A stretch of DNA of 42,096 bases from an uncultured Dehalococcoidia bacterium (lineage in GTDB: Bacteria > Chloroflexota > Dehalococcoidia > SM23-28-2), in the NCBI GenBank assembly GCA_964354065.1, contig CAYGYF010000001.1, positions 1 through 42,096 on the forward strand. Reading direction: 5' to 3'. The notes beneath the pieces were generated by a model that was given only the letters and a program-made list of their open reading frames with translations, did not search any database and was not told where the DNA came from. Below, one piece after another: positions 23,643 to 41,957 of the stretch. The first letter of the stretch is position 1, and every line of letters starts with the position of its first letter. Made by a program: the position numbers and the translations under genes.

Positions 23643-23707
23643 TGCCCGCTCCTCGCCCCGCAGGATGGGGCGGCGCACCATCCAGGCTACGCCGCCCCGA
23701 CAGTCGC

Positions 23708-26700
23708 CTACCAATCAACGCCCACGACGCCCGGCTGGGTCGTCACGGTTGCGTAGCAGTTGCCCACAACCTTCGCGTACCCGAACCGGCTCATCGCCGA
23801 CTCAGACTCGCAGAAAGTCCCGTCCGCCACGAACGGCGTGGTGACGTAGAGGGGGATGAACGGGCAGAAGATCGTGCCCGCGTCCGGCCACTCTGGGCCC
23901 TTGCGCCCGAGGAGCAGAAGGTCGGTCGGGAAGAAGTCGGCATCGCAGCCGTACACCTTGAGAGTCGGAGAGCCCTGGATCGTGCCGATCAGGTTCAGGC
24001 CGACCTCCCAGTCTCGCGCCTCCGGGTCGCCGGTCGTGGCCACCCACGACTGCAGCGACATGAGGCGGATCAGGGCGTTCTGTCCGGCCACCACCCAGTT
24101 CGCTCGGGCGCGGCGGGTCGCTCGGATCAGGCCGTCGCCGCGGAGAATGAACTGGTAGAGCTTGCGCTCCCACTCGGTGTGGTTGGTGTAGCCGAGCAGC
24201 GGCATCGCGGTGCCGTAGTTGATGTTGCCCGCGGTGATGATGCCCGCCGGGTCCGCGGCAGTGCGCATCACGTTCAGCAGCAGCGCATTCACCTCCCTGG
24301 CGATCTCGTCGGCCATGAAGTTCACCATCTCGCTGGCGATGTTCAGGCCGAAGTCGGCCAGGATGTTCTGGCGCACCTCGGTCGACCACTCGGCCCGGAG
24401 CTTCTTGGTGTCCATGGTGATGTCGCTGTGTGAGAGGGTGAGCTTCACCTCGCGCATCGGCGACTGCTCGCTGATGTGCTGTGCGTACTCGCTCTGGAAC
24501 TGACCCGGGATGGCGGGGTCGCCGAGGCTCGGATCGTACAGGAAGTTCAGGAAGTGGACGATCCCGGTGCTGCGATTCATCGGCTGCACCGAGCACAGTT
24601 CGCGGGCGATCAGCCGCGCCCACACCTGCCGGATGATGGGCAGGATGTAGGGGACGGTCTGCGCGACCGCTGCGACGCCGGTCCACTCCATCCGGGCTCG
24701 CATATCCGGATGGAGGTGCGGCCGGAAATACACCCCGCGGTCAAGGCGAAGCATGTTCTCCGCGATCACGCGGAACTGATGCTTCTCGTTGCCGGGGTGG
24801 TAGCCGGGGAACGGGAGATTGCGGCCCATGTAAGCGACGATGGGGTCCTCGGGGTCGCTGGACGAACGGAGGCCGTTGTCCGGGAGGCCCTCGGTCAGAA
24901 GGTCGATGGCCTCCTGAATGTCGCGCGGCTTGTCGGCGTCACGGAGCTGGCCCAGCTGGAAGAGCTTGGCGCGCTCCTTGGTGACGCCCTCGCGCGAGAG
25001 CGCATCGTGCACGGGCGAGAGGCCCCTGCCGGTGGGCTGACCGTTGATCACGATCATGCCCATCTCGGTCAGGTGGCGCTGCGTCTGCTCCAGGGTCGGG
25101 GCGATCTGCACAGGGTCGGTGACCTCGCTGAGGCGGAGATCCAGGAACTTGCGGGCCGGCTCATTCCAAGCCGCGATCTCCGGGCGTTCCATGATCGCCT
25201 TGCGGGTCTCGGTCAACACCGCGGTCGTCACGCCCGCCTTCTTCTCGGCTTCCTGCTCCGAGATGAAGGTGTTGACGCGCGCCATGGTCTCCTCGACCTT
25301 GGCCAGCACGTCGCCAGTCGGCGCGGCCGCGACAACGGGCTTCGTCTCGGTCGCCACAGCAGCATCGGCCGCGGCAGGATCGCCCTCCGCCGGCTTGCCA
25401 TCACCGTTGACTTTGCCGGCCAGCGTCTCCATCACCGGCTTGAGGCCCGCGGTGATCAACTCACGCGTTTTCGCTTCGAATTCAGCCAGAGTCATTTGCT
25501 CCAGCACCTCATCGATGATCTCGCCCTGTGCGTCGTCCTCCACGCGCGTTGGGTCTGCCGCAGGCGAGACCCGCTCGCTGAAGCTCGTGACTCCGGCGCC
25601 ATCGGCGCCGGCTCCGAGCACGAAGTCCCAGCCGCCCCAGTGTTCTAGGGCGGAGGTCTCGTCAACCACCTCGACGGTTTTCCCGTCGCGCACATCCCTT
25701 TTGGTCGTCGCGAATGTCCTACTCGATACCTGGACCGGGACGCCATAGCGGATCTGTTTCTGCACGTCGAGGCCGGCCGCGGTCGGGATGATAGTCGTCT
25801 CGCCGCGCAGCCAACCCTCGGCCACGTGCAGGTTCCGCCAGGGCGTGGTCACCGTCGATGCCAACCGCGGGTAGCCGTCCGCGGGATGGTCCTGCTCGCC
25901 CAGCCATCGCCGAGCCCGCTCGGTCTGGGCCGTGCTCTCGGCCACGAGTTGGTCGGCGAGTTTCTGCGTGTAGACCCGACCGTTCTTGGTCGGCGTCCCC
26001 ACCGGCGTCAGTCGGCACTCGACCGTCATCACCGGATCGCCGCGGTCGTCGGTCGTCTCCGTCACCACCCGCAGGCCATCCCTGAGGTCGGCACGGAAGG
26101 TCTCGACGAGTTCGGTCTCCATACCGAGGGCGCGCCCGGTCGACGCAGGCACATCAGGCGTAGGCGGGGGCGTCGCGGCGGGTGAACCTGTGGGGATGGT
26201 CTGGTCGCCGGCGCGCAGGCTCACCGTGACCGGCTGCACGTTGCTCAGCACTATTGCCCCGTCGTCGCCGCGCGCCCAGACCGCGGAGTAGAGACTATCG
26301 TTCCTGCCCGACACCACGACCTGCCCGGGCCGGGTACCCTCGACGGAGCAGTAGGCGTGCTCCTCGTCGGCCCCGAACAGGGCGGCGTTATCGCGCACCG
26401 CCTTGCGCAGATCGGCGATGGTCGCCTCGTAGGTACCGGAAATGGTCACCCATGCCTCGAGCAGCGGCTCCGCGTCCCCATCGACTGGCAGGTATTCCGT
26501 GAAGGAGTCGCCGAGCCGGAAGGCCTCCTTGATGCTCGCAGGGATGTCCGTGTCCTTGACCTTCAGCCGCTTGTAGGCAGCGCGGATCTTTGCCTTCGCT
26601 CCCGCCACCGCGTCGGCCGGGAGCTGCACCTTCTGCCCGCGGAACCCACCCGGGGAGAAGGCGGCCGCGGCCCGGCCCAACTGCGCGACTGTGACTTTCG

Positions 26701-26911
26701 CGGTCGGAGACTCCCACAGGCGGAGCTTCCACTCGGAGGGTTTGTCGGGGTCTGGCGCGTAGGCATAGGCCTCCCGCGGGTATGACTCCCCGCCCTCCGT
26801 TTTGGTCGCCTCCATCGTCGGCGCGGCCTGCTCCATCAGCGCCAGGAGCCGATCGCCTTCGGCGTCCCTCGCCTCCCGTAGGCGAGCCTTGACCTTCTCT
26901 GTTCTCGTCAT
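23708..26911 (-). CDS. head polyprotein: N-terminal domain + T4 gp21-like prohead protease + scaffold-like linker + major capsid protein (1067 aa)
   Basis: Internal ATG 26911 of track ORF 23708..27199; the upstream part is R/G junk. KNGRVYTQKL, LGEQDHP and VQVSSRTFA line up with the gp21 motifs NKRLYPK, LGELNHP and GVSSRGLG. A long acidic/helical linker follows. The C-terminus has ARELCSVQPMNRSTGIVHFLNF, typical of HK97-fold/gp23-like capsid proteins. Confidence 0.75.
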   Translation of the reverse strand: MTRTEKVKARLREARDAEGDRLLALMEQAAPTMEATKTEGGESYPREAYAYAPDPDKPSEWKLRLWESPTAKVTVAQLGRAAAAFSPGGFRGQKVQLPADAVAGAKAKIRAAYKRLKVKDTDIPASIKEAFRLGDSFTEYLPVDGDAEPLLEAWVTISGTYEATIADLRKAVRDNAALFGADEEHAYCSVEGTRPGQVVVSGRNDSLYSAVWARGDDGAIVLSNVQPVTVSLRAGDQTIPTGSPAATPPPTPDVPASTGRALGMETELVETFRADLRDGLRVVTETTDDRGDPVMTVECRLTPVGTPTKNGRVYTQKLADQLVAESTAQTERARRWLGEQDHPADGYPRLASTVTTPWRNLHVAEGWLRGETTIIPTAAGLDVQKQIRYGVPVQVSSRTFATTKRDVRDGKTVEVVDETSALEHWGGWDFVLGAGADGAGVTSFSERVSPAADPTRVEDDAQGEIIDEVLEQMTLAEFEAKTRELITAGLKPVMETLAGKVNGDGKPAEGDPAAADAAVATETKPVVAAAPTGDVLAKVEETMARVNTFISEQEAEKKAGVTTAVLTETRKAIMERPEIAAWNEPARKFLDLRLSEVTDPVQIAPTLEQTQRHLTEMGMIVINGQPTGRGLSPVHDALSREGVTKERAKLFQLGQLRDADKPRDIQEAIDLLTEGLPDNGLRSSSDPEDPIVAYMGRNLPFPGYHPGNEKHQFRVIAENMLRLDRGVYFRPHLHPDMRARMEWTGVAAVAQTVPYILPIIRQVWARLIARELCSVQPMNRSTGIVHFLNFLYDPSLGDPAIPGQFQSEYAQHISEQSPMREVKLTLSHSDITMDTKKLRAEWSTEVRQNILADFGLNIASEMVNFMADEIAREVNALLLNVMRTAADPAGIITAGNINYGTAMPLLGYTNHTEWERKLYQFILRGDGLIRATRRARANWVVAGQNALIRLMSLQSWVATTGDPEARDWEVGLNLIGTIQGSPTLKVYGCDADFFPTDLLLLGRKGPEWPDAGTIFCPFIPLYVTTPFVADGTFCESESAMSRFGYAKVVGNCYATVTTQPGVVGVDW

Positions 26912-26952
26912 GTTCCTGGCCCCTTTGTGTGGGCCAGGCGTCCATCCCGCCC

Positions 26953-27147
26953 CTAGAAGCCCGGTCCTTCGGTTAGACTTCCGACCTCTCGCCACTCGAT
27001 CAACAGCGAAACCCTCAGTCCGCGGCCGTGGCCCTCGATGCTCGATAGGCTCACCACGTACGGCTCCCCGAGCTTGGCCTGCGCGCCCTCGACCGCGAGT
27101 CTCGCCACCAGCGCAATCGTCTCCCCGCCCATCGCTTCTTTCTGCAT
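26953..27147 (-). CDS. hypothetical protein (64 aa)
   Basis: ATG 27147 overlaps the upstream stop. Starts MQKEAMGGETIALVARLAVEG. Confidence 0.45.
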   Translation of the reverse strand: MQKEAMGGETIALVARLAVEGAQAKLGEPYVVSLSSIEGHGRGLRVSLLIEWREVGSLTEGPGF

Positions 27148-27377
27148 CACCCGCCCTCCTGCGGCCGCCCGATCCACTTTCCATCGCGGATAATACCACG
27201 CTTTACCGCAATGCGATAGATGGGCAAGCGTTGAAATGTGGCCAGGGACAGGCCCTGCTGCTCCAGCCAGGCAGCGAATTCCTCCGTACCGTAGGGCGGC
27301 AGATCCCAGCCCTGCTTTGTCCAGTCGGCGTTCGTGTCGACCTCGTCGAGGTTCAGATCGTAGACTTCGGCGCTCAT
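27147..27377 (-). CDS. hypothetical acidic protein (76 aa), candidate partner/immunity protein of the MuF-ART
   Basis: ATG 27377 overlaps the MuF-ART stop (ATGA). Starts MSAEVYDLNLDEVDTNADWTKQGWDLPPYGTEEF. Confidence 0.5.
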   Translation of the reverse strand: MSAEVYDLNLDEVDTNADWTKQGWDLPPYGTEEFAAWLEQQGLSLATFQRLPIYRIAVKRGIIRDGKWIGRPQEGG

Positions 27378-29590
27378 TTTGGTGCCGCCACCTTCGCCAT
27401 GCTGGAGATCACCTTCCCCCACGCCAAGCGTTCGTCCTTCCCCCACGCCAAGCGTTCGTCCTTCTCCAGGGACCAGATGGCGGCCGCAATCGGTTCGGAG
27501 TCGCCCGCCAGCACCACGGCCTCATATTCTCCCAGGCAGCCATATCCGCTGCGGGCCGTCCCGATGATCCGCCCGATCGGTACGTCCATCGCCATCACCA
27601 CCCCGTGGGGTGTGCCCTTCCCATAGGCGAATCCCACGGCCGTGTCGTAGTTGGCCGAGAAGGAACTCATCGGCTGGAGGTGCGGCCGCATGTTGATGCC
27701 CAGGGGTTGCATCTCCCTCTTCCCCGCCTTCACGGCGGCGGCGTTGGCCCGCTTGAACTTGTCCCAGGGAAGTCCCTTCGGCGGATGTCCCGCGTCGTAT
27801 TTCATCCCGCGGAACAGCCGCATGTGCGTGATGCCGTTTTCCTTCGCCCACTCCTGGGTGTTGTCGTGCATGGCCCGCAGGAAGGCGCGGTAGGCCTTAC
27901 CGTTCCTGCCCAGCATCTCCCCCACCTTATCCCGCATACTCGGGCTCAACGTCCTCATCCATGCCTTTTCGCCGAGGGAGAACTCCTCCCGCGCTGCGAT
28001 CTGCATAGCCAGGGCCCGCACGTCGTCGTCAGCGCTGGTCCCCGCCCATCCCTGGATAAGATCATTGACCCGCGAGAGGTGGGCGGACTGATACTGAGGG
28101 CCTGTCCCCGGCACACGCTTTACGAAGGCCTGCCAATCGGCATTCCCCTCCAGGCGTTGTGCAACCGCCTGCACCACCTTGTCCTTCTCAATCGGCGCCG
28201 CGGCGCGAATGTCCTCCCAGCCGGGCGCGGGAGTGCCCGACGTGTTGGGCAGGCCTCGGGTGAACTGGATCATCTCCTGGTCGGCCTGCCGTCGCCAGAT
28301 GGTTTCGTCGTCATTCTGCCACCGCGTCGTCGGCTTGTGCCAGGGATGAACCTCGGCAGTCGGCTCGACGGCAGCCGGCGGGGGCTCCGGCGCTGGCACC
28401 TTCGCCCGCGGAACGCGCGGCGCCTTCGCCTTCGGGATCTTCACCGCCTTGGGCCCTTTCGGGAAGACCGGCCCGGCGGCCAGCACTTCCGGCGGCGGCG
28501 GGGTCTTCGACAGCTCCAGCCAGGTCGCGGCCTTCGGCACCTCGGGGGTGATCACCTGCGCGGTCGGCGTCTCGGCGGCCGCAGCCATCGCCTCCTCGCC
28601 CATCGCCTGCGCGCGCATGCGGTCGAGGTCCTGCTCGGAGGCCACCACTCCGCAAAGGCAGTGAGGATGCAGCGGCGGCAGGTCCGGCGACGTGGCCGGG
28701 AAGAGTTTCCCCTCCCGCATGGCGCAGTCTGCGCAGGGCACCGCGGCCGTGATCCACTCCACCATCTGGACGCCCTGCCCGAGGTAGACCTGCCGGGAAC
28801 CCTCCGTCCTGGCCCGCACCGACTCCGTGCGCCCGATGCGCTCCGCCTGGTAACTGCTGAGGCCCGAGAACGTCTCCCGGATTCGCTCGCCCATCGTGAT
28901 CGTGCTGTCGCCGGCGTCGAGGCCGTCGATGATCACCTCGCGCAGCACCTGCTGATGCTCCTGCACCACGAGCACCGACAGGCGGTCGCCGTAGTAGCCG
29001 GCGTAGTCGGCCAGCGCCTTCTCGGCCGCCGGGTCCTTGAGCAGCCAGTCCGCACCGAGGCCGAGCGTCGCGGCGGCGTCCTGGGCACCGGTGAGCATCG
29101 CGCTCTCGAAGAGGCCGCGGAAGGTCTCGGCGAAGTCCGCCACGACGGTCTCGGGCATCTCGACCGCGCTCACCACCACCTGCAGCGGCGAGAGCGCCTC
29201 GAGCATCGCCTCGCCGCGCAGGGAGGCCGCCAGGGACGCCTTCTGCTCGTCAGACAGCGAGACCAGTCCCTCGATGCGTTTGCGCCACTGCCCGCGCACC
29301 AGCCTCCGATCGGCACCGGGCGTCCCGACCACCGCCCGCCAGTTCTCCCGGGCTCGCTCCACCGCCAGGTCCGACCGGAACGACGACCGGACCAGGTCGG
29401 GCAGGATCGACTGCGCCGGCATGCGCCAGACGCGCCAGAAGTGCTGCTCGTGCCCGCGCACGAGCGCGCGCGCCGCCAGCAGCATCCCGTGATGGCCGGG
29501 GAGGTCCTCAGCCTCGCGCAAGAGGCGCAGGGTAGGGATGAGCACCCGCAAGGCGCCCATTGCCTCCCGCCGCGTCACCGAACCATTCAT
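27374..29590 (-). CDS. MuF-like minor head protein fused to a C-terminal ADP-ribosyltransferase domain
   Basis: MuF signature: ERIGRTESVRARTEG ... PPLHPHCLCGVV. A Pro/Lys-rich linker follows. Then the R-S-ExE triad: MRLFRG, PMSSFSAN, GEYEAVVL. ATG 29590 has GAGGT upstream and overlaps the portal end by 83 nt. Confidence 0.75.
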   Translation of the reverse strand: MNGSVTRREAMGALRVLIPTLRLLREAEDLPGHHGMLLAARALVRGHEQHFWRVWRMPAQSILPDLVRSSFRSDLAVERARENWRAVVGTPGADRRLVRGQWRKRIEGLVSLSDEQKASLAASLRGEAMLEALSPLQVVVSAVEMPETVVADFAETFRGLFESAMLTGAQDAAATLGLGADWLLKDPAAEKALADYAGYYGDRLSVLVVQEHQQVLREVIIDGLDAGDSTITMGERIRETFSGLSSYQAERIGRTESVRARTEGSRQVYLGQGVQMVEWITAAVPCADCAMREGKLFPATSPDLPPLHPHCLCGVVASEQDLDRMRAQAMGEEAMAAAAETPTAQVITPEVPKAATWLELSKTPPPPEVLAAGPVFPKGPKAVKIPKAKAPRVPRAKVPAPEPPPAAVEPTAEVHPWHKPTTRWQNDDETIWRRQADQEMIQFTRGLPNTSGTPAPGWEDIRAAAPIEKDKVVQAVAQRLEGNADWQAFVKRVPGTGPQYQSAHLSRVNDLIQGWAGTSADDDVRALAMQIAAREEFSLGEKAWMRTLSPSMRDKVGEMLGRNGKAYRAFLRAMHDNTQEWAKENGITHMRLFRGMKYDAGHPPKGLPWDKFKRANAAAVKAGKREMQPLGINMRPHLQPMSSFSANYDTAVGFAYGKGTPHGVVMAMDVPIGRIIGTARSGYGCLGEYEAVVLAGDSEPIAAAIWSLEKDERLAWGKDERLAWGKVISSMAKVAAPK
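27417..27464 (-). repeat. perfect 24-bp tandem duplication inside the MuF-ART 3' end
   Basis: ccccacgccaagcgttcgtccttc occurs twice (27417-27440 and 27441-27464). It encodes KDERLAWG twice. Confidence 0.95.
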
Positions 29591-31127
29591 GCTCGTCTAC
29601 CTCAACGCCGCTCTCGGGCGGCGCCTCTATGCCCAGGGTCTCGCAGGCCACGACCATCAGCGCGTCGGCCATCTCCCGCAGCGACTGCCGCCGCTCCCCA
29701 GCGGGCATGGCCGCGGCGTTCGCTCCCATCGCGTCCGCGCTCGCCTTCAGCCACCGGTCCCTCTCCTCGGCGCTCGCCACCACGTACCGGTCGAGTAGCA
29801 CCTCCCTCGGAATCCCGATCAATGTGGCGATGATCTGGGCAGCCTGCGCCCGGGTCAGTTCGGTTTTCGCCTCGGCCGCGTCGTCCGTGGTCGAGACGGT
29901 CGGGAATGACAGGCCCACCGGGTTGGCCAGCGGGTCCAGGCCCCGCAGGATCAGGTGGATGGAGATGACCTTTAGGTGGCCGGCCCGGATATCGCCCTGC
30001 AGCGTGCGCACCGTACGAGCGAACTGCTTGTCCTCGTACGAGATCCCGCCGTCGCCGAGGGAGGCCCGGGCGGCCTCCTCGCCGCCCATGTTCAGGTAGC
30101 GCATCGGCACGCCGATCTTCCCGATGACCTTCGCCCGCATGTACCGCACGTCTCCGATGTTCTGGAGCTGGGCGTTGACGGGCGAGTACGGCTCCAGCCC
30201 GACCTTCGCGATCTGTACGCCGGCCGGGACCGGAATGAAGAAGTCGTCGGTAGCCACCGAGGGCGAGTCCCGCCGGGAGGTGCCGGCCGTGTTCGAGAGT
30301 TGCCGGCGCTGGCGGATAGCGTCGGTATACTCCTTGATCTGCGCCTTGATCTCGGTCGCCCCCCTCGCCGGGTCGATGGGGATGTAGTGGACGATCCTGT
30401 CGCCGGCGCGGGCGAGCCGGATCTGCACCATCCCATCCTCCTCGGCCTGCAACCGCTGCCAGTCCCGCTCACAGTCCAGGACCCCGCGGCCGTAGATGCC
30501 CTCGTCGTCGGGGCGATGCTTATAGTGAGTCACTTGCCAGTCAGCCATCGGGATGCCCGAGCCGTCCTGCTGGTAGTAGGGCCTCTGCTCCCACGGCGGG
30601 TCAAGGGGATTGCCGTACGGGTCCCGGCGAATCCACATCTGATTCTCGGGGAGAAGCTTGTACCGCGCCACCCTGGTGCCCGATGGGTCGAGCGTCACCT
30701 CGCGCATCTCGTTCCCGAACTTCAGCAGCCGCCGGGCGATGGCCCACGACTCCTCCCGCAGGTGGAGCACGTCGCACAGCAACTCGACCTCGCCCGCAGT
30801 CCGCTGGTCCTCGCAGACGATCTCGAAGGCGCTGCCCTCGCCCTCCGCGGGCGCAGTCGCGGTGTCGGCGGTGATGTCCAAGGCCTTGGAGATCAGCCCG
30901 TCCTCGCGATCCATCCGCAGCCGAAAGGCGTGCTGCTCGGCGCGGTTCTGGGAGACCGACCAGAGCTTGGCGGTCGTGCTCAGGATGTCGATGTCCAGGA
31001 CGCCGCGTTCGCCGGCTCCGAGAGTCACGACCGGAGTCAGGTCGGCGGCGCTCGCCGGGCCGGGCGTCGGCCCGAAGAGGCGCGCCAGGCGGAGCCCGAT
31101 TGATCGCTGGATGTCAGTCAGAGTCAT
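29508..31127 (-). CDS. portal protein
   Basis: Track ORF. The call rests on size, position between terminase and MuF, and the RMDREDGLISKALDITADTA segment typical of portal N-domains. Confidence 0.75.
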   Translation of the reverse strand: MTLTDIQRSIGLRLARLFGPTPGPASAADLTPVVTLGAGERGVLDIDILSTTAKLWSVSQNRAEQHAFRLRMDREDGLISKALDITADTATAPAEGEGSAFEIVCEDQRTAGEVELLCDVLHLREESWAIARRLLKFGNEMREVTLDPSGTRVARYKLLPENQMWIRRDPYGNPLDPPWEQRPYYQQDGSGIPMADWQVTHYKHRPDDEGIYGRGVLDCERDWQRLQAEEDGMVQIRLARAGDRIVHYIPIDPARGATEIKAQIKEYTDAIRQRRQLSNTAGTSRRDSPSVATDDFFIPVPAGVQIAKVGLEPYSPVNAQLQNIGDVRYMRAKVIGKIGVPMRYLNMGGEEAARASLGDGGISYEDKQFARTVRTLQGDIRAGHLKVISIHLILRGLDPLANPVGLSFPTVSTTDDAAEAKTELTRAQAAQIIATLIGIPREVLLDRYVVASAEERDRWLKASADAMGANAAAMPAGERRQSLREMADALMVVACETLGIEAPPESGVEVDEHEWFGDAAGGNGRLAGAHPYPAPLARG

Positions 31128-31242
31128 GGCAGCCTCGTTTCCCCGCCCGCGGATTCCCTACTATGTCGGTGGTCATGGTCGTGTGTGCCGTTTCCCTGCT
31201 GTTCGCGTCGAAAGTGCCGCAACTGCGCGCGACAGCGCCGCG

Positions 31243-31370
31243 CGCTGGCGCAGGGCCGTACTCCCTTCCCTAACACATCCCCTCCACATCCAGCAAGGAT
31301 ATGTCGCTAATTCTAGCGACGAGTCGGGGACATGTCCGGGAGATGTCCGCGACTTCTCCGCGACATGTCG
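31243..31370. repeat. iteron-bearing repeat element, copy 1 (52 bp identical to 41444..41495 plus phased ATGTC[CG] motifs)
   Basis: 31243-31294 is identical to 41444-41495. ATGTCG/ATGTCC motifs occur at 31301, 31332, 31343 and 31365, with spacings of 31, 11 and 22 bp. Contains the 10-bp palindrome GGACATGTCC (31328-31337) and the inverted repeat GTCGCTA-ATTC-TAGCGAC (31303-31320). Lies in a 293-bp gap between the terminase and portal genes. Confidence 0.8.
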
Positions 31371-31420
31371 GGGATAAAGTCGGCCTTTTGCACTCTCTCT
31401 GCACTCTCCCCACACTCCCA

Positions 31421-32911
31421 TCAGTACACCCCATACCAGTCCCCGAGCCCCGCGATCACACTCGGCGCCTCGGCCCAGAAGGCCATCGCCACGGCATCCC
31501 CATCGTCGGTGCTCCTCCCGATCCTCTTGCGGATATCGTCCTTCGCCTCGACCTGGATCTTCCCCCCTGACATCACCCTCCAGTGGGGTGCCGTCAGGTC
31601 CCCGATCAGCAGGTCATCCGGCGGCAGCGCCACCTCGTGGCCGCCCGCCGGGTCGAGTAGCTCCCGGAGGTTCCACCACGCCGCGCTCCTCTTGTTTACG
31701 AAACCCAGCTCCCCGCCCTTGTCGGTCGCTTTCGTTCCCTCGCTCGCGTTGAATGCCAGTACCTGGCAGCCCTGCTCCCGCAGGCGATCGACCACGCCGG
31801 CGCCGATCCCGATCACGTCCACCGCCGCCTCTCCGCCCTGGGCCTGTAGGATCCCCGCCACCAGGCCCGTCGTTGCCATCGTATCCTGCCGGGAGAAGCG
31901 CCGCAGCTCCCGGATCGCGTTGCCGTGTCGCATCGCCAGCACCGTCTGGTCGGAGCCCGAGCGCGCCACGTCCACGCCGACCCGCGTGAAGGGTCCCCAC
32001 TCGCCCGCGTCCTGCAGCGCCAGCCATCGCCTATTCGCGGCCTCCACGTGCGCGAGGGGGATAATGCCATCGGCCTCACTTGAGGCGAACTCGCCGATAA
32101 CACGGTTCTGGTAGACCGCCGAGTCCTCGCCCCACTGGGCCCGCCGCTGCTCGGCCCACTCCGCGCTGACTCGGCCAGCAGCTATGCACTCGTCGAGGCG
32201 GACGTGCTTAACCCACCAGTCGTCGAGGCCCGGCTTTCGGGCGTGGATGTCGTAGAAGCGGCCTTGCGGCTCGCCGGGCGTGCTGACAGCCAGCGCATAG
32301 GTATCTCCGCCGGCCAGGGCGCCCTCGGCCGCGTCCCACGTCGCGGCCGGGATGGTCTTCGCCTCGTCGAACACGTAGAGGAGGCTATCCGCGTGGGCAC
32401 CCTCGATAAGCTCCGCCGTATCGCTAGCGACCGCGAAGGCCTCGCCGGTCCTTAGCCGGAGGTTGAGCTGCAGGAGATGGCCGCCGACCTCGAAGGGTTC
32501 CCTTCCAAGCAGATCCCAGCGTAGCCGCCGCGCCCACTTGTGAATCTCAGGCCAGAGATAGTGGGTCAACTGCCGCCAGGCACTGGCGGTCGTGACGATC
32601 TTCCAGTCGACCCGTCGGCTGTCCCGGGTCAGGGCGAACCAGTGCACGATCCACGCGACGAGCGCGGTCTTGCCCGCCCCATGCGGGCTGCGCACCGCCA
32701 CCCGCCGGCGCTGGGGCAGTTCCTCCAGCACCTCCATCTGGTACGCGGCCGGCCTCTCTCCGTCACCCCACCGCAGGCACTCGCGCACGAACAGCGCCGG
32801 CTGGTCCTTGTACCGCAGCAGCCGGCGATCGGCCTCGTCCAGGTAAGTCTCAAGTTCCTCCCGCTGCTCCAGGCTCAAGGATAGCCCGGATGCGGGCGAG
32901 TAGCTCGTCAT
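31421..32911 (-). CDS. terL: terminase large subunit
   Basis: Track ORF. Walker A-like RSPHGAGKTALVAW. Has the two-domain ATPase-nuclease size. Located upstream of the portal gene. Confidence 0.85.
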   Translation of the reverse strand: MTSYSPASGLSLSLEQREELETYLDEADRRLLRYKDQPALFVRECLRWGDGERPAAYQMEVLEELPQRRRVAVRSPHGAGKTALVAWIVHWFALTRDSRRVDWKIVTTASAWRQLTHYLWPEIHKWARRLRWDLLGREPFEVGGHLLQLNLRLRTGEAFAVASDTAELIEGAHADSLLYVFDEAKTIPAATWDAAEGALAGGDTYALAVSTPGEPQGRFYDIHARKPGLDDWWVKHVRLDECIAAGRVSAEWAEQRRAQWGEDSAVYQNRVIGEFASSEADGIIPLAHVEAANRRWLALQDAGEWGPFTRVGVDVARSGSDQTVLAMRHGNAIRELRRFSRQDTMATTGLVAGILQAQGGEAAVDVIGIGAGVVDRLREQGCQVLAFNASEGTKATDKGGELGFVNKRSAAWWNLRELLDPAGGHEVALPPDDLLIGDLTAPHWRVMSGGKIQVEAKDDIRKRIGRSTDDGDAVAMAFWAEAPSVIAGLGDWYGVY

Positions 32912-33578
32912 CCGATAGCCCCTCGACGGAGACCCTCACCGGGCCGCCGCCCTTGCCCGTCACCTCGCTGCGCTCGGTCGGCTGGCCCGAGTCCAGGCGC
33001 TCAAGCTTCTGCCCGATCTCGATGGCCTGGACGGCCAGCCCGGCCATCTCCAGGATGCTCTTGCGCTCATCCTCGATTCGCTCGACGGTGCCGTCCCGGT
33101 GGCGCGTGATCCGCACCGACTTCGTCCGCGCCTCGGTCAGCCGGTTGAGGCCGCCGCCCTGCACCACCTCGAGGATCCGCGTCGCCACCGATCGCCCCAT
33201 CTGCCGCAGGGCCCAGTCCTCAGTCTCGTGCAGCTCCTTCTGCTCGGCCCGCTGCTCGGCCTTCCGGATCGCCGCCTCGATCAGGACCTTGTCGGCGGCC
33301 TTCTGCGCCTTCTCCTGCTGGTGCTCATCCCAGGCGCGGCAGCGGTCTCTCCAGTGCCACTTCGCCGACCACTCCTTCCACCACGAGTAGTACGGTTTCC
33401 GGGCGGTCTTGGGAAGGTCCTTGACGCCGGTCGCCTTGGCGACGCTACGCTCCCGAGGGGGCAGGTCCCGATACCGCAGGAAGGCGGCGTAGGCCTTCTC
33501 GCCCTCGCGCGGCTGCCGATGCCAGGGCTGGTGTATCCCAGGGGGCCGCTTCGGGGCCTCGCCCTCCTCATCCGACAC
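32850..33578 (-). CDS. terS: terminase small subunit
   Basis: Track ORF directly upstream of and overlapping terL. The N-terminal EKAYAAFLRYRDLPPRERS is HTH-like, and the middle is coiled-coil. Confidence 0.6.
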   Translation of the reverse strand: MSDEEGEAPKRPPGIHQPWHRQPREGEKAYAAFLRYRDLPPRERSVAKATGVKDLPKTARKPYYSWWKEWSAKWHWRDRCRAWDEHQQEKAQKAADKVLIEAAIRKAEQRAEQKELHETEDWALRQMGRSVATRILEVVQGGGLNRLTEARTKSVRITRHRDGTVERIEDERKSILEMAGLAVQAIEIGQKLERLDSGQPTERSEVTGKGGGPVRVSVEGLSDDELLARIRAILEPGAAGGT

Positions 33579-33768
33579 GTTGCGACTCCTTCACTCGCCA
33601 GCGCCGACGCACCTGCTGCTGCATGATCTGCGTGCCACCGATGCTGCCGACCGCCTTCTTCCACTGCCTCCACTTGCCGCACGAAGGACAACCCCCCGCT
33701 CGCAGGTAGGCCCCGCGGGTGTGGCAGGCGAGGCAGCGCGGGCAGACTACCTCCAGCGAGTCAGCCAT
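33568..33768 (-). CDS. Cys4 zinc-ribbon small protein (66 aa)
   Basis: Track ORF. Contains CPRC ... CPSC. Confidence 0.5.
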   Translation of the reverse strand: MADSLEVVCPRCLACHTRGAYLRAGGCPSCGKWRQWKKAVGSIGGTQIMQQQVRRRWRVKESQRVG

Positions 33769-33777
33769 TGCTTCTCA

Positions 33778-34266
33778 TCACCCCGCGCCCATCGGCAGGG
33801 GGATCGTCGCCATTGAATGCAATGCCAGCAGGCCCAGGACCCGAGTGTCGATCTTCATGCCCCGCTTGCCCGCCGGTGTGATGTCAACCGCGGCCACCTC
33901 TGCAGCCGTGGCCCAACCCAGGAGGCGGCCCCGCTGGTGCTCCATATCGATCTGCGCCAGAGGATAGTACTTGGCAGTCAACTCGTCTCCTGCAGGTATC
34001 AGCAGGAGGGGCGTTGGCCCGAGGTAGTCAATGGCCTTCACGTCGACCTTACCGAGGAAGTCGGTGCCGTCGTCGGGACCGCCGAGGACGCGAGGCTTTT
34101 CGCCGCCCGACCAGAGCCTCCAGACCTGCTCGCCGAGGACACCGAGAAAGTGTGTCGCGATCCGAGTGCGGGCAAGGTTGCCATCGTAGTCGTGCGTGGC
34201 ATCCCGCTCGCGAGCCATCTCCATCGACTCCGCCCAAACCTCGATCAGCGAAATCCAGTCAGTCAC
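33778..34266 (-). CDS. hypothetical protein (162 aa), possible PD-(D/E)xK-like motif
   Basis: GTG 34266 is preceded by AGGAAAGGG; the track start is 34293. GPDDGTDFLGKVDVKAI resembles a D...(D/E)-x-K nuclease core. Weak evidence. Confidence 0.5.
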   Translation of the reverse strand: MTDWISLIEVWAESMEMARERDATHDYDGNLARTRIATHFLGVLGEQVWRLWSGGEKPRVLGGPDDGTDFLGKVDVKAIDYLGPTPLLLIPAGDELTAKYYPLAQIDMEHQRGRLLGWATAAEVAAVDITPAGKRGMKIDTRVLGLLALHSMATIPLPMGAG

Positions 34267-34335
34267 GTTCCGCCCTTTCCTGCGCCGACCCACATGGCCC
34301 CTGGCGATATTGCTGCTGGTTCATGCACGATCTGC

Positions 34336-34403
34336 GGCCATCTTATCGCGCCGAGATGGTGCCCGGGGAGGTATATCCGGGCCATCTTATCGCGCCGAGA
34401 TGG
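34336..34403. promoter_or_regulatory. two identical 24-bp sites with inverted-repeat ends (operator-like), 44 bp apart
   Basis: GGCCATCTTATCGCGCCGAGATGG occurs at 34336-34359 and 34380-34403. Each site has CCATCT ... AGATGG arms. They lie in the 194-bp gap between the methylase gene and the next gene. Confidence 0.6.
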
Positions 34404-34460
34404 CCATAGACCGGCAACCTCGTCGAGCGCCTATGGCCGCGTTCATGGCCTGTTACTGCG

Positions 34461-35723
34461 CTAGTCACATTCCGCCTTCTCCCCGGTCAGACCCTCCCAC
34501 CTGGCGAGGATAACATCGCAGTAGTGCGCATCCAGGTCGAAGCCAAAACAGCGCCGGCCGGTGCGCTCGGCGGCCATGATGGCGGTGCCCGATCCCAGGA
34601 AGGCGTCCACCACCAGGTGGCCGAGTTCGGTGGCATTCGAGATCGTGCGCTCGATCAGCGCCAGCGGCTTCATGGTCGGGTGCAGATCGTTGGCGAGGGG
34701 CTTGTCGTGCTCCCACACCGTGCGCTCGTTGGTGGGACCGTGCCAACGGGGGGCCTGACCTCGCTTGAACGCGTAGAAGCAGGGCTCGTACCAGTGCTTG
34801 TATTGGGCGAAGAGCGCACCGGCGCCGTTGTTCTTCACCCACACCAGCAGGTTCCGTTCCTGCCAGCCGGTCTCGGCCAGGCAGTCGAGTACGTGGCGCA
34901 AATGGGTGCTAGCGAACCACAGGTAGAGGGGGGCTTTGTCGTCGGAGTGCTGATGCGCTAGGCCCAGACTGCCTACGAGCAAGGCCCGGTACTGCTCCGG
35001 CGTCAGATCGTCCCAGTAGGCGTCGGGCTCCTGCCCATCGGCTCCCCGGCGATGCGCGGAGATGCGCTCCTCCTGGGCGGCCCGGCCGCCAACGTAGTTG
35101 ATGCCAGAGGGCGGATCAGTGACGACGGCGTGTGCGAGTTCGCCGGCCATCAGGCGCTGCCAGTTCGCGGGGTCCGTGGCATCGCCGCACATCACCCGAT
35201 GCCGCCCCAGCGCCCACACCTCGCCCGCCTGCACCCGCGTCGGCCCCTGCTGTACCTCGGGGACCTCTTTCTCCTCGCGCCTCTTCATCTCCCGCGTGCG
35301 CAGGCCCGCGAGCAGGTCCTTAAGGCCGGCGTCCGAGTACCCACTCGCGGGCAGTTCGCCGCGGCCCTGCAGGTCCTGGAGCAGGGAGGCCAACGCCCCC
35401 TCGTCCGGCTCCGCGAGCGTGGCGAGGTAGTTGTCGGCGACGATGTAACTCTCGGGATGGTCGCCGGCATAGACTCCGCAGGCGATGCGCGTCCAGCCGA
35501 TCGACTGTGCGGCCTCGACCAGGCCGTGGCCGGCGAGGATGGTGCCATCGGAGGTGATGACGACGTTCTTGACCTGTCCGTGGTCACGGAGGGACTGCCC
35601 GAGGCGGGCGATCTGGTCGCTGCTGTGGCGATTGTAGTTTTGGGGGTGCGGGCGCAGACTCGCCAGGTCCCGCATCTCGATGCGAAGCGTGGCCTCATCA
35701 GCCGCAGGCGTGATGGTGCTCAT
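34461..35723 (-). CDS. ParB-like nuclease domain / DNA methyltransferase (N6A/N4C, PF01555-type) fusion
   Basis: ParB box LRPHPQNYNRH. Motif IV-like TDPPSG (35117-35106). Motif I DAFLGSGT near the C-terminus. ATG 35723 is preferred over track GTG 35741. Confidence 0.8.
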   Translation of the reverse strand: MSTITPAADEATLRIEMRDLASLRPHPQNYNRHSSDQIARLGQSLRDHGQVKNVVITSDGTILAGHGLVEAAQSIGWTRIACGVYAGDHPESYIVADNYLATLAEPDEGALASLLQDLQGRGELPASGYSDAGLKDLLAGLRTREMKRREEKEVPEVQQGPTRVQAGEVWALGRHRVMCGDATDPANWQRLMAGELAHAVVTDPPSGINYVGGRAAQEERISAHRRGADGQEPDAYWDDLTPEQYRALLVGSLGLAHQHSDDKAPLYLWFASTHLRHVLDCLAETGWQERNLLVWVKNNGAGALFAQYKHWYEPCFYAFKRGQAPRWHGPTNERTVWEHDKPLANDLHPTMKPLALIERTISNATELGHLVVDAFLGSGTAIMAAERTGRRCFGFDLDAHYCDVILARWEGLTGEKAECD

Positions 35724-35729
35724 GCGCGC

Positions 35730-35757
35730 AGTATACCACACCCGGGCCTCAGCACAA
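35730..35757 (-). promoter_or_regulatory. candidate promoter for the methylase gene, possibly giving a near-leaderless mRNA
   Basis: Minus strand reads TTGTGC (35757-35752), 16 nt, TGG-TATACT (-10 at 35735-35730). Only 6 nt lie between the -10 and ATG 35723, with no SD sequence. Confidence 0.35.
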
Positions 35758-35772
35758 GGGCCGAGGCCCGGG
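35741..35772. promoter_or_regulatory. 10-bp perfect inverted repeat in divergent control region (operator or bidirectional hairpin)
   Basis: CCCGGGCCTC (35741-35750), 12 nt, GAGGCCCGGG (35763-35772). It brackets the candidate -35. Confidence 0.5.
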
Positions 35773-35788
35773 GGAACGCACGCCTCAC

Positions 35789-35974
35789 ATGGGTCGCGGG
35801 CGGGGCCTGCGCGAACTGGACAGGCTCCTCTACCTAACCGGCTGGACGCTGGGCCGCCGCCACGCCGGGCAGCCCGAGTGCAGGCTGGCGGGCTGGATCT
35901 CCCCCCTCGAGGATCTCAAGGCGGTGAAGGCGGAGCTGACCAGGCTCGCCCTCAAGTACGACGAGGTGGACTAG
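35789..35974 (+). CDS. hypothetical small protein (61 aa)
   Basis: Track ORF. Codon position 3 is almost all G/C. Stops 2 nt before the amidotransferase ATG. Confidence 0.55.
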   Translation: MGRGRGLRELDRLLYLTGWTLGRRHAGQPECRLAGWISPLEDLKAVKAELTRLALKYDEVD

Positions 35975-35976
35975 TT

Positions 35977-36744
35977 ATGTGCGGCGTCTTCGGATTCGTC
36001 GGCGATCTTCCCGCCACGGAATGGCGCAAGGCGCATCGCCTGCTGCAGGCGCTCGCGGCCGCGCACGAGGACCGCGGCGTGGACGCGGCGGGCTACGCCG
36101 CGCTGCCCACCCGCGGCGAGATGCTTTGGCAGCGTCGGCCGGGACCGGCCCGAGAGCTGTTCGAGGACGTGGGCTTCGCCGCCCTGCGCAGGCGCCGGAT
36201 CCTCCTGGCGATCGGACACACCCGCCTCGCCACCAACGGCGTCCCCGCCGTGAACGGGAACAACCACCCCCACCTGGCGGGCGAGTGGGCGCTCGTCCAC
36301 AATGGGTTCGTCCCCGACCACGCCGGGATCGCCGCCTCCCTCCGCCTGCCGCTGCGCAGCGAGTGCGATTCGGAGATCCTGGTCCGGGCGCTCGAGGCCT
36401 ACGGCGAGCAGCACGGCCCGGGCGTGTGCGCAGCCATCGGCGGGTCGCAGTCGGTACTGGCGATCAACGGGCACACCCGCCGGCTCCTGGCGTGGACGAA
36501 CGGCAGGATGCCGCTAGTCGCCTTCCGCGTGAAGGGCTGGCGGGCGATCTGGTGGGCGTCGACACAGGCGCTCGCCGAGGATGCACTGGCTGAGGGCGGC
36601 TTCGAGGCGACGTTCGCGGTAGCCACGCCCGGCCGCCTCTACCAGTTTGAGGCACAGGGAGGCCGGGTCACCCAGACGCCCCGCCCCCTGGCCGCCCCCG
36701 CCGGCCGCGCCTCCCCCGCGACTCCCGGTTCAGCGCCGCGATAA
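35977..36744 (+). CDS. class II (Ntn) glutamine amidotransferase domain protein (255 aa)
   Basis: ATG 35977 with GAGGTGG 8 nt upstream. N-terminal MCGVFGFVG supplies the catalytic Cys2. GHTRLATNG, NNHPH, LVHNGFV and SECDSEILV are the canonical GATase-2 motifs. No synthase domain is attached. Confidence 0.8.
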   Translation: MCGVFGFVGDLPATEWRKAHRLLQALAAAHEDRGVDAAGYAALPTRGEMLWQRRPGPARELFEDVGFAALRRRRILLAIGHTRLATNGVPAVNGNNHPHLAGEWALVHNGFVPDHAGIAASLRLPLRSECDSEILVRALEAYGEQHGPGVCAAIGGSQSVLAINGHTRRLLAWTNGRMPLVAFRVKGWRAIWWASTQALAEDALAEGGFEATFAVATPGRLYQFEAQGGRVTQTPRPLAAPAGRASPATPGSAPR

Positions 36745-37192
36745 CCTCCGGCGGCCGGTGGTCGGTGAGTACGTTGATCGCGCGCAGGCCAACCCCGAGG
36801 CAGTCCCGGACATGCTCCGGGACCCGTTTCCCCCTCGCGTTCCGCGGCCGCCCGAACTTCTGCCAGGCGATCAGGGCATCGCTGTCCTCGACCGTCGAGA
36901 CGCGCTCGAAGCGCAGCCGGCCGCCATACATTCCCTCCAGGAAGCCCGCCTGCGATTCCTGCTGCCGGCCCACGTCCCGCTTCGGCCCGCTCCCGATCGA
37001 AAAGGTTTGCTCGACTGCCAGCACCGTCGCCCCACGGCGAGCAATCAGATCGTCGATGTAGGCGAGCACCGGCGGCCCCCAGGCGTCGAAGGCCCGCCAC
37101 TCCAGGAGCACGGGTGAGTCCCAGGTGCCGAGGACGCAGCAGACGACGGGATGAGTGCCGAGATCGACCGCTATGACCACCTGCAGGGCCAC
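36668..37192 (-). CDS. RuvC-like Holliday junction resolvase
   Basis: GTG 37192 has GGGAGG upstream; the alternative is ATG 37219. VIAVDLG, LAVEQTF and EHVRDCLGVG fit the RuvC acidic/His pattern. The last 77 nt overlap the convergent amidotransferase gene. Confidence 0.6.
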   Translation of the reverse strand: MALQVVIAVDLGTHPVVCCVLGTWDSPVLLEWRAFDAWGPPVLAYIDDLIARRGATVLAVEQTFSIGSGPKRDVGRQQESQAGFLEGMYGGRLRFERVSTVEDSDALIAWQKFGRPRNARGKRVPEHVRDCLGVGLRAINVLTDHRPPEVIAALNRESRGRRGRRGRPGGGASG

Positions 37193-37194
37193 GG

Positions 37195-37278
37195 CTACCG
37201 CCTCCCGTCCAGCGCCCATCCCAGGCCGTAGCCGAGGAGGGCGGAGACCAGGACCACCAGAACGTCGAGGAGGGTCAT
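37195..37278 (-). CDS. 27-aa transmembrane micro-protein
   Basis: Below the track cutoff. ATG 37278 overlaps the upstream stop (ATGA). MTLLDVLVVLVSALLGYGLGWALDGRR. G/C-rich third positions. Stop lies 2 nt before the RuvC-like GTG. Confidence 0.4.
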   Translation of the reverse strand: MTLLDVLVVLVSALLGYGLGWALDGRR

Positions 37279-37595
37279 CGGGCGGCCTCCAGCCTCGCCA
37301 TGAGCGCGTCGATCCGCAGCAGCGCCTCGTCGAGGGCCTGCTGGAGGATGTCCCGTTGGACGATGACCGACCTAGGTGAACAATAGGGGCAGGCCGCGGC
37401 GTTGTGATGATTGTCACCGAGAGGGGCGAATCGCGCTTCGGCGAGGGCCTGCTCCGCGGCCTCGGCCCGGGCGCGCTGGAAGTCATAGCAGCCCGAGGGC
37501 ACCGTCCTACATCGCCTCTGCTCTCCGCCCACGACTGGCTCACCACGGACTGTGCATACCTCTGACTCGGTAAGATGCTGACAGGTCTCAGCCAT
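37275..37595 (-). CDS. hypothetical Cys-containing protein (106 aa)
   Basis: Track ORF with a C-terminal coiled coil. Confidence 0.5.
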   Translation of the reverse strand: MAETCQHLTESEVCTVRGEPVVGGEQRRCRTVPSGCYDFQRARAEAAEQALAEARFAPLGDNHHNAAACPYCSPRSVIVQRDILQQALDEALLRIDALMARLEAAR

Positions 37596-39489: not shown

Positions 39490-39508
39490 GAGGCCTCCTT
39501 CCGCCGCC

Positions 39509-40554: not shown

Positions 40555-41062
40555 GGGGGGCCTCCTCGCTCTGCCCTGGCAGTTCGCTTGGCGATTGAAG
40601 GTCCTTCATCCACCAGCCCGGCCGCTCGAGGGTGCGATCATCCGGCGCCGCAGCCTCTTCTCTGTGCCCGAGGGCCAGTTCGGCTGATCTCAGTCGATGC
40701 CACCGCAGGAGCCGCTGGTACAGCCTCGGCGAGAGCATCGTCGCGGCCGGGTTTCCCTGGTGCCGCCGGTCGACGAAGAACCTCAGCCGCGCTGCCTCGG
40801 GCCGGCAACCTGGGCAGTGGTAGGGGAAACTGGCGCCGCCCACCGCCAGCAGATCCGCGTCCGTCTCCGCCGCCTTCGATCTCGGGAGCAGCACCCAACC
40901 GGTGTCCCGGCAGATCGCGCACTCATATAGGATGCTCTGCTGGCCGTCTGGCTCGGTGATGATGCGCCGTTCCGGTTTGACCCATCCCGACACCGCCCGC
41001 AGGTAGGCGGCTCGGTTATCGTTGGCCGCCTCGGTACTCTCAGGGCTCGACGTGCGCCGCAT
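40547..41062 (-). CDS. Cys4 zinc-finger protein (171 aa), replication-module position
   Basis: Internal ATG 41062 with AGAGGG upstream. Contains CAICRDTGW ... CPGC. Confidence 0.5.
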   Translation of the reverse strand: MRRTSSPESTEAANDNRAAYLRAVSGWVKPERRIITEPDGQQSILYECAICRDTGWVLLPRSKAAETDADLLAVGGASFPYHCPGCRPEAARLRFFVDRRHQGNPAATMLSPRLYQRLLRWHRLRSAELALGHREEAAAPDDRTLERPGWWMKDLQSPSELPGQSEEAPHA

Positions 41063-41945
41063 GGCTGTCCCTCTTGGCCGCGACCTCGCGCAGCAGGCTG
41101 GTGTAGGTCGACTTGAAGTGGGCGAATGACCCGCCCGGCGTAATGGGGTGCCCTCGTTCGGCCGCCTGTTCCATCTGCCCGCGCAGGCGCGCGAAGTAGC
41201 AGTCGACGGTCTCCTCGAAGTCGGCCGCGTCGTCGCCGGCGAGGACACGCTGCCGGAAGAAGCCGGCGGCCGCCGCGTCTGACCAGTTCGGCGGGTCGGC
41301 CACGGGCGCCACGAACTTCCGCACCTCTCGGTGCAGGTAGTCGACCCCGGCCTGCTTGACCGCGTTTTGCTCCGGGGTTAGCCGGTCGGCTGGAGCACGG
41401 CGTGTGCGCCTGCGGGGGGCTGGGCCTGCGCGCGCCGGCGTGTCGCTGGCGCAGGGCCGTACTCCCTTCCCTAACACATCCCCTCCACATCCAGCGCGAG
41501 GTGTCGGGGATGTGTCCGCGACTTCTCCAGGAGGTGTAGGCGACGGTTCGGCGACGACCGGTGGAGTGCAGCACCTGCAGCAGTGCGGCGGCGCTGGCAT
41601 CACTGAGGCGTGCGGGGAGTCGATGCGCTGCCAGTCGAGCCAGTCGTGGACCACGCCGTAGTGCGCGCCGTCAGCCTCGTAGAGGTGAATCAGTCGACGC
41701 CGCTCAAGAATGGCCAGCATCGCGATGATGCGCTCGACGGTCGCCTCCGGGTCGACGGACAGGATCTGGACCTTGAGCGATAGGGGGTCGGCCCGGAAGC
41801 GGCCTTTGTCGTCGATTGGCTTGCTCCGTATTCCGATCAGCAGCGTGATCGCCTTCGAGTCCTCGGCCATCACCGCCAAGGTTTTCGGGTGAGACCAGAA
41901 ACCCGGGTCCAGCGTGCGGATGCGATCCGTCCCATCGCGTGGCAT
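41040..41945 (-). CDS. replisome organizer / replication initiator-like protein (301 aa) with repeat element in its linker
   Basis: Track ORF. The N-terminal domain (LDPGFWSHPKTL...DDKGRFRADPLSL...ERIIAMLAILERRRLIHLYEADGAHYGVVHDWLDWQ) has the winged-helix phage organizer pattern. A low-complexity linker coincides with the 41444-41539 repeat. A structured C-domain follows. Confidence 0.6.
   Translation of the reverse strand: MPRDGTDRIRTLDPGFWSHPKTLAVMAEDSKAITLLIGIRSKPIDDKGRFRADPLSLKVQILSVDPEATVERIIAMLAILERRRLIHLYEADGAHYGVVHDWLDWQRIDSPHASVMPAPPHCCRCCTPPVVAEPSPTPPGEVADTSPTPRAGCGGDVLGKGVRPCASDTPARAGPAPRRRTRRAPADRLTPEQNAVKQAGVDYLHREVRKFVAPVADPPNWSDAAAAGFFRQRVLAGDDAADFEETVDCYFARLRGQMEQAAERGHPITPGGSFAHFKSTYTSLLREVAAKRDSHAAHVEP
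41444..41539. repeat. iteron-bearing repeat element, copy 2 (candidate ori inside the organizer gene)
   Basis: 41444-41495 is identical to 31243-31294. GTGTCG, GTGTCC and GTGTAG occur at 41501, 41512 and 41534, with spacings of 11 and 22 bp. The shared tail GTCGGGGA..TGTCCGCGACTTCTCC is also present. Confidence 0.8.
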
Positions 41946-41957
41946 ATCCTCTCGCCC

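Follow-up and report, generated by a model that had tools for sequence, protein, structure and literature searches.

A second copy of an iteron-containing initiator gene module in the terminase-portal gap of an uncultured phage: a candidate origin-type site

What is the role of the 293-bp stretch that separates the gene for the large terminase subunit from the portal gene in this phage, and how is it related to the replication initiator gene, in which part of its sequence recurs? We analyzed this question in the window, i.e., the whole 42,096-bp contig, which has a GC content of 66-70% and carries nearly all of its genes on the minus strand. The elements that define the locus are the following.

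32850-33578, minus strand: TerS, the first gene in the local order TerS, TerL, gap, portal
31421..32911, minus strand: TerL, terminase large subunit, upstream neighbour of the gap (phrog_2, E = 2.5e-31)
31128..31420, no strand assigned: 293-bp non-coding gap between the TerL stop codon (31421) and the portal ATG (31127)
29508..31127, minus strand: portal, downstream neighbour of the gap (Pfam Portal_T4, E = 1.4e-17; phrog_213)
41040..41945, minus strand: replication initiator gene, 301 aa (phrog_1408 "replication initiation protein", E = 7.9e-19, residues 8-126)

Third-position GC (GC3) was 0.83 to 0.93 in the genes flanking the gap, and its periodicity disappeared from every one of the three phases between 31128 and 31420. 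The 82-aa open reading frame predicted in the gap had no homologue among the 5.8 billion proteins searched. Because of the missing GC3 periodicity and the lack of a homologue of this open reading frame, a coding function of the gap was rejected. A known RNA was rejected as well, since the comparison with Rfam yielded no family, either at the gathering threshold or at an E value of ≤1, and the RNA fold of the gap was only marginally better than that of shuffled sequences (z = -2.2). A mobile insertion was discarded as an explanation because neither terminal inverted repeats nor a target duplication were seen at the gap. A preliminary description of the locus had stated that the 82-aa frame and the initiator gene read their common segment in different frames and that the conservation is therefore at the DNA level. 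The first statement was confirmed, and the second agrees with the absence of codon periodicity and of homologues. The accompanying remark that genes elsewhere are separated by only 0-40 bp is not fully right, as aperiodic stretches are also found at about 34211-34561 and 651-1341.

A repeat search of the contig showed that positions 31243-31294 and 41444-41495 are identical in 52 of 52 positions, as had been described before, and these are the only two copies of the block in the 246-contig, 1.8-Mb assembly. A gapped alignment revealed that the homology extends well beyond the 52 bp first noticed, namely over 31223-31374 and 41426-41543 (about 150 bp with 106 identical positions). The flanks on the side of the iterons, which are described below, were similar with a z score of 7.4. 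The two copies have the same orientation and lie 10.2 kb apart. Their differences are mainly insertions in the gap copy: one of 21 bp carries half of an AT-rich palindrome, and two short ones of 2 and 9 bp together amount to about one extra 11-bp iteron unit. The elements of the block and its surroundings are as follows.

31243..31294, minus strand: 52-bp block, gap copy, the positional counterpart of the G-rich tandem repeats of relatives
41444..41495, minus strand: 52-bp block, intragenic copy, encoding initiator residues ~151-168 in a predicted disordered linker
31223..31251, no strand assigned: GC-rich inverted repeat CTGCGC...GCGCAG (GCGACAGCGC/GCGCTGGCGC) that flanks the gap block and forms a hairpin in the RNA fold
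31303..31320, no strand assigned: AT-rich inverted repeat GTCGCTA-ATTC-TAGCGAC, within the 21-bp insertion relative to the initiator gene copy (alignment)
31391..31417, minus strand: second tract that is G-poor on the plus strand, CACTCTCCCCA in 2.5 copies with an 11-bp period (TRF), with a 22-nt G-free run at 31402
31310..31338, minus strand: sigma-70-like pattern match CGGACA-17-TAGAAT directed towards the portal gene

The block has a GC content of about 59% and a pronounced strand asymmetry. On its sense (minus) strand the gap copy reads GGATGTGGAGGGGATGTGTTAGGGAAGGGAGTACGGCC... and is G-rich and free of C, and its plus strand contains two CACATCC words spaced 11 bp apart. The G-free run on the plus strand, previously given as roughly 35 nt, measures 34 nt in each copy (31259-31292 and 41460-41493) and is the longest of the contig, the runner-up having 24 nt. 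The initiator gene copy is flanked by a counterpart of the GC-rich inverted repeat, CCTGCGC...GCGCAGG, and CTGCGCGCG is common to both copies. A DnaA-box-like TCCACA within the block was dismissed as too short to be meaningful. The second G-poor tract adjoins the TerL stop codon and is purine-rich on the sense strand.

The preliminary description had listed four ATGTC(C/G) motifs in the gap, at 31301, 31332, 31343, and 31365, together with a perfect 10-bp palindrome. All four motifs are present, a fifth was found at 31163, and the palindrome is GGACATGTCC at 31328-31337. What had been overlooked is the actual repeat unit, an 8-bp core with the sequence GAnnTnTC, to which the ATGTC words belong. 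Units of this type form two arrays.

31298..31381, no strand assigned: gap array of seven GAnnnnTC-type units (TRF period of 11 bp with 4.7 copies; motif counts; inverted repeats)
41498..41560, no strand assigned: intragenic array of six units in 11-bp phase (self-similarity of 0.56 at lag 11 and of 0.56 at lag 22)

The units of the gap array start at 31298, 31318, 31329, 31340, 31351, 31362, and 31373, the last six being in 11-bp phase. Those of the intragenic array start at 41498, 41509, 41520, 41531, 41542, and 41553 and read GAGGTGTC, GATGTGTC, GACTTCTC, GAGGTGTA, GACGGTTC, and GACGACCG; the first three match the GAnnTnTC core and the last three are degenerate. The iterons of the gap copy surpass those of the intragenic one in both number and quality. 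When 11-bp self-similarity was calculated for the whole contig, the gap ranked first (z = 5.8) and the array in the initiator gene tied for second place (z = 4.5). A second perfect 10-bp palindrome, CGACATGTCG, is located at 31361-31370, and both palindromes are units of the gap array. The sequence GACATGTC occurs exactly twice in the 42 kb, both times in the gap. With up to one mismatch, 4 of its 11 matches in the contig fall within the 72 bp from 31298 to 31369; contig-wide, one-mismatch matches are not enriched (11 observed versus 16 expected).

Two further places in the window resemble these arrays. Raised 11-bp self-similarity (z = 4.5) was also found in a third region, 10763-10886, inside the gene for a 951-aa protein at 10380-13235, and is probably due to a coding low-complexity repeat rather than to an iteron array. 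A solitary iteron-like word, minus-strand ACCGACATAG, lies at 31160-31170, outside the main array and upstream of portal, with about 35 nt left to the ATG; it fits the RCCGACAnnTC iterons of close homologues of the initiator and could be a single operator-type site.

The duplicated part of the initiator gene encodes a region of the protein without predicted order. In an AlphaFold2 model, a winged-helix N-domain (pLDDT 63-84) is connected to a helical C-domain by residues 106-189, which are disordered (pLDDT below 50). Iterons and block together encode residues ~129-168, within this linker, and the GC3 periodicity collapses also here, at 41360-41540. A Foldseek search with the model returned only generic winged helix-turn-helix (wHTH) regulators at E values of about 0.05. 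The sequence matched no Pfam family even at an E value of ≤10 and no PDB entry, and no relationship to SPP1 G38P (Pfam Phage_rep_org_N) or to lambda O was detectable at the sequence level. Directly downstream of the initiator gene, at 40547-41059 on the minus strand, there is an open reading frame of about 170 aa with two Cys-x2-Cys pairs and no Pfam or PHROG match. In relatives this position is occupied by an IstB/DnaC-like gene (L004) or by a gene for a DnaB-like helicase (Gsput1, Pitbull), and for this reason the product of 40547-41059 may be an unrecognised helicase-loading partner.

To which extent the intragenic module is a property of the initiator family was analyzed with close and distant homologues. 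The closest ones (P0002 and P0003) share 59-61% identity with the N-terminal half of the query and 45-48% in the full-length alignment. At the same position they contain three to five 11-bp iterons of the form RCCGACAnnTC followed by a G-rich, C-poor tract, and in the corresponding loci (L003/L086 and L004) this stretch includes a shared GGGAAGGGAG...TACGGCC. The G-rich tract of L004 includes GGGAAGGGAGGGGATAGTACGGCC, compared to GGGAAGGGAGTACGGCC in the window. A tblastn search with the initiator yielded 152 phage records with 29-37% identity. These distant homologues belong to a very large winged-helix family annotated as 'RepA-like replication initiator', which occurs in phages of Mycobacterium, Gordonia, Streptomyces, Arthrobacter, and Propionibacterium and in some phages of Enterobacter and Klebsiella. 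In them, iterons and then a G-rich tract follow directly after the part of the gene that codes for the N-domain, as the following examples illustrate.

Gordonia phage Gsput1: iterons ACTCACTGAGC x 3.7; G-rich repeat (GGAAG) x 5.8
Mycobacterium phage Redi: iterons GACCCTCGCGA x 4.5; G-rich repeat (GGAACAGG) x 4.5
Phages Fishburne, Yeet412, and PFR1: phage-specific iterons; G-rich repeat of the (GGAACAGG) type x 4-5
Streptomyces phage Ididsumtinwong: phage-specific iterons; G-rich repeat (GGAACAG) x 6
Arthrobacter phage Pitbull: phage-specific iterons; G-rich repeat (GGAAG) x 4.8
Enterobacter phage Tyrion: phage-specific iterons; G-rich repeat (GGATCAG) x 3.4

Phage-specific iterons of about 11 bp with a subsequent G-rich repeat, typically (GGGGAACA)n, were present in all 10 diverse members inspected. 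This feature was defined in the present analysis and not taken from the literature, and the G-rich repeat sequences were not found in any phage paper of the literature searched. When IMG/VR was scanned with an alignment of the Redi type, at least 518 relatives were identified, the best 80 loci of which were inspected for the G-rich repeat rather than for iterons. By eye, about 70 of these 80 loci contained the repeat (GGRGAACA)3-5 approximately 400-440 nt into the gene, and a strict cut-off for G minus C flagged 48 of them. The window carries a degenerate version of the family's G-rich part, which reads GGATGTGGAGGGGATGTGTTAGGGAAGGGAG. Individual positions of such repeats include L088 1859-1930, L089 1870-1962, L098 1293-1367, L099 1390-1460, L100 1314-1361, L101 1279-1332, L102 1297-1332, and L103 1275-1298, and in L119-L198 they lie about +400 to +440 nt from the start of the rep gene. 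A G-quadruplex as a common property of the G-rich tracts was considered and rejected as not general, since by eye four G3 tracts were found in about 6 of 11 members and three in the window. Judged from these comparisons, phage-specific iterons followed by a G-rich tract on the sense strand are a positional hallmark of the initiator family. The presence of the module at this very spot in 10 diverse relatives, and of the G-rich repeat in about 70 of the 80 IMG/VR loci, identifies the intragenic copy as the family's putative origin-type module. The alignment of the two copies then indicates that the gap repeats, in non-coding form, the iteron array and the G-rich block from the phage's own initiator gene.

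The conservation of the gap copy, a point raised in the preliminary description, was examined in several sets of relatives, and in none of them was the gap copy found. In the closest TerL/portal relatives (L006-L009; TerL 73% and portal 51% identical) the distance from the TerL stop codon to the portal start is 8 bp, and the gap is therefore an insertion relative to these nearest relatives. IMG/VR contained 208 TerL relatives, and of the 80 inspected none had an 11-bp-periodic gap between TerL and portal; exact matches to the block or to an iteron pair were likewise not obtained in IMG/VR. Close homologues of the initiator were found on contigs of 1.5-2.7 kb only and were absent from viral_contigs and genome_contigs. 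Six phages were searched over their complete genomes (Gsput1, Redi, Fishburne, Yeet412, PFR1, and Pitbull); no second module copy was detected in them, and iterons and/or G-rich repeats were confined to the initiator gene. No second copy was present either in the 80 IMG/VR initiator loci with flanks of up to 10 kb, which is to be read against the distance of 10.2 kb between the copies of the window. Among the relatives examined, the gap copy is, by these sequence comparisons, peculiar to this phage, and the duplication appears unusual in the initiator family.

A two-origin layout is already known from Bacillus phage SPP1, and by analogy the gap would add a further case of it. In SPP1, gene 38 contains oriL, and oriR is found at a distance of 12-13 kb, where a non-coding segment breaks up the late genes; oriR is organised like oriL, with direct repeats and an unwinding element, gp38 binds both, and oriR is thought to stall replication forks and to trigger the switch from theta to sigma replication (PMC6316719, PMC3485210). 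The window resembles SPP1 in having one origin-type module inside the initiator gene and a second, similarly organised copy in a non-coding segment among late genes, with a distance between the copies of ~10-13 kb. It differs from SPP1 in that the initiator is unrelated by sequence to gp38 (G38P), that a G-rich/C-rich asymmetric block in a genome of 68% GC takes the place of an AT-rich tract, and that the TerL-portal junction harbours the second copy, which in SPP1 follows the genes of the portal region.

A comparison can also be drawn to phage lambda, where the origin lies in the middle of gene O, dyad-symmetric iterons encode the linker between the two domains of the protein, and an unwinding tract is present on one side (PMC7466680). 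The iterons of the window similarly occupy the central part of the initiator gene and, according to the structure model, encode a linker between the wHTH domain and the helical C-domain. Lambda differs in having one origin only, as opposed to the two module copies found here, in an iteron length of 19 bp compared to an 11-bp phase, and in an unwinding tract that is AT-rich rather than a G/C strand-asymmetric block of ~59% GC. Its O protein is not detectably related to the initiator of the window. A third comparison is offered by iteron plasmids such as RK2 with its TrfA protein, in which Rep binds the double-stranded iterons and also one strand of the repeats in the adjacent unwinding element (PMC10602881). 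A winged-helix initiator, phased iterons, and an adjacent strand-specific tract of short repeats are features in common with the window. Here, however, the module is that of a phage and embedded in coding sequence. In iteron plasmids, extra iteron clusters serve control.

The preliminary description had offered three roles for the gap, and the one we favour is that of a second origin-like site recognised by the initiator, since the gap duplicates the entire iteron-plus-G-rich module. The parts of this module are 11-bp-phased iterons with palindromic GACATGTC-type cores, the strand-asymmetric block, and the flanking GC-rich inverted repeat. We consider it probable, though with considerable reservation, that the gap is a second initiator-binding site of the origin type comparable to oriR of SPP1. 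The winged-helix N-domain of the initiator would bind the iterons, with dimers probably arranged along a single helical face, and the adjacent asymmetric block would be the site at which the duplex is opened or a single strand is held for helicase loading, in the manner of lambda ori within gene O and of SPP1 oriL within gene 38. The gap copy would be bound by the same initiator. It might fire as a second origin or, as has been proposed for oriR of SPP1, form a tight complex with the initiator at which forks stall and which aids the switch to concatemer formation. Being free of coding constraint, it could carry better iterons, and the added AT-rich palindrome would lower its stability. In agreement with the latter assumption, the inverted repeat GTCGCTA-ATTC-TAGCGAC noted earlier is present, and only two 50-bp windows of the contig are less stable than the interval 31266-31315, which includes the AT-rich insert (nearest-neighbour stability, z = 3.4). 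Several observations speak against an origin-type site. No close relative carries the gap, and a single copy suffices in six complete genomes and in 80 loci of the initiator family. Neither is the block AT-rich nor the copy in the initiator gene a marked minimum of stability (z = 0.9-2.3), and the initiator is unrelated in sequence to the origin-binding proteins of SPP1 and lambda.

The gap array might also serve solely for control, binding the initiator without ever initiating replication and thereby titrating or handcuffing it or repressing or timing late transcription. Such a function, which we regard as rather unlikely, would fit the more numerous and better iterons of the gap, its position directly upstream of portal in the path of TerS-TerL-portal transcription, and the view that oriR of SPP1 is itself mainly a barrier of bound protein. 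Titration, however, requires iterons only, whereas the gap has kept the whole block in 52 of 52 positions together with the GC-rich inverted repeat and has gained an easily melted insert. That the non-iteron block was preserved in its entirety favours a complete site of the origin type over a mere operator or titration site; the perfect identity could equally result from a recent duplication or a gene-conversion patch, and not from selection. If the gap is simply a functionless piece of the initiator gene that reached the TerL-portal junction not long ago, as a copy made by illegitimate recombination or gene conversion, this identity, the absence of the gap from all relatives examined, and comparisons that offer no sign of maintenance would all be expected. 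Such a neutral scar appears distinctly improbable, as the flanks have diverged by unit-sized indels and yet the 11-bp phase and the palindromic cores were kept and even improved. The two exact GACATGTC matches of the contig are both located in the gap. Neutral decay would not yield such a pattern, and a compact phage genome would rarely keep 293 bp of junk within its packaging and head operon.

The promoter-like hexamers that had been pointed out on the minus strand are real, and the late promoter or operator derived from them is conceivable as an additional or alternative role of the gap. CGGACA-17-TAGAAT is the sole sigma-70-like match in 22100-42096; it has the right orientation, sits within the late region's largest non-coding gap, and has its TAGAAT in an insertion specific to the gap copy. 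Judged from the sequence, it may be a real promoter for portal. That the gap mainly supplies this promoter for the portal and head genes, with the similarity to the initiator gene being incidental or regulatory, is improbable, because one match per 20 kb corresponds to the rate in shuffled sequences (1.3 ± 1.1), because the 150-bp homology to an origin-type module and the 11-bp-phased array would be left unexplained, and because relatives express portal without any gap. The third proposed role, a recognition site for packaging, found no support in our data. A pac or cos site, or alternatively a gene for a small protein or RNA, might be suspected from the adjoining terminase genes, the 82-aa frame, and the modest RNA fold, but there is no codon periodicity, no homologue of the frame, and no Rfam family, and the motif is common to the gap and the initiator gene, with nothing that ties it to terminase; we consider this explanation hardly credible. 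The favoured origin-type site, which is supported by architecture and sequence comparison, may be a firing origin, a fork barrier, or a regulator.

If this interpretation is correct, the layout of oriL and oriR in SPP1 would be extended to an unrelated family of winged-helix initiators, the other examined members of which have a single copy only. Furthermore, two candidate origins would be at hand for an uncultured lineage of high-GC phages, together with 11-bp-phased GACATGTC cores as a candidate motif for initiator binding. The gap copy also bears on the G-rich tract, which is conserved across hundreds of initiator genes of actinophages. Its variants are typically (GGGGAACA)3-5 and also (GGAAG)n and (GGATCAG)n, and the encoded peptide is a cyclic permutation of GEQGNRGT that is the same in any reading frame. 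Constraint at the DNA level and constraint at the protein level are consequently inseparable in the other phages. Only the untranslated gap copy speaks for the G-rich tract being active as DNA (or as RNA or single-stranded DNA) and not as protein: the block was kept letter for letter where it is not translated, which hints at a function as nucleic acid. It is possible, if doubtful, that the G-rich, C-poor repeat of the family is a conserved cis-acting component of the origin in high-GC phages and not merely the coding sequence of a Gly/Glu/Arg-rich linker. In this case the window would represent a natural experiment that shows the cis role of the tract, which could be a strand-specific element for unwinding or for holding single-stranded DNA, or one prone to R-loop or G-quadruplex formation, that replaces the usual AT-rich tract.

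Other repeats of the window are located outside the two module copies. At the start of the contig (1-116), a 33-bp tandem repeat in 3.5 copies with 95% identity lies inside an open-ended minus-strand open reading frame and probably explains why the assembly stopped there; no 15-mer indicative of a circular contig was common to the terminal 400 bases of both ends. An 85-nt direct repeat with 92% identity is present at 19328-19412 and 21345-21429, 2 kb apart in an island of glycosyl- and methyltransferase genes, and suggests paralogous gene segments. A perfect 24-bp tandem repeat (2.2 copies) at 27412-27464 lies in the 3′ end of the gene for a 738-aa protein downstream of portal and results in a repetition of the peptide ERLAWGKD.
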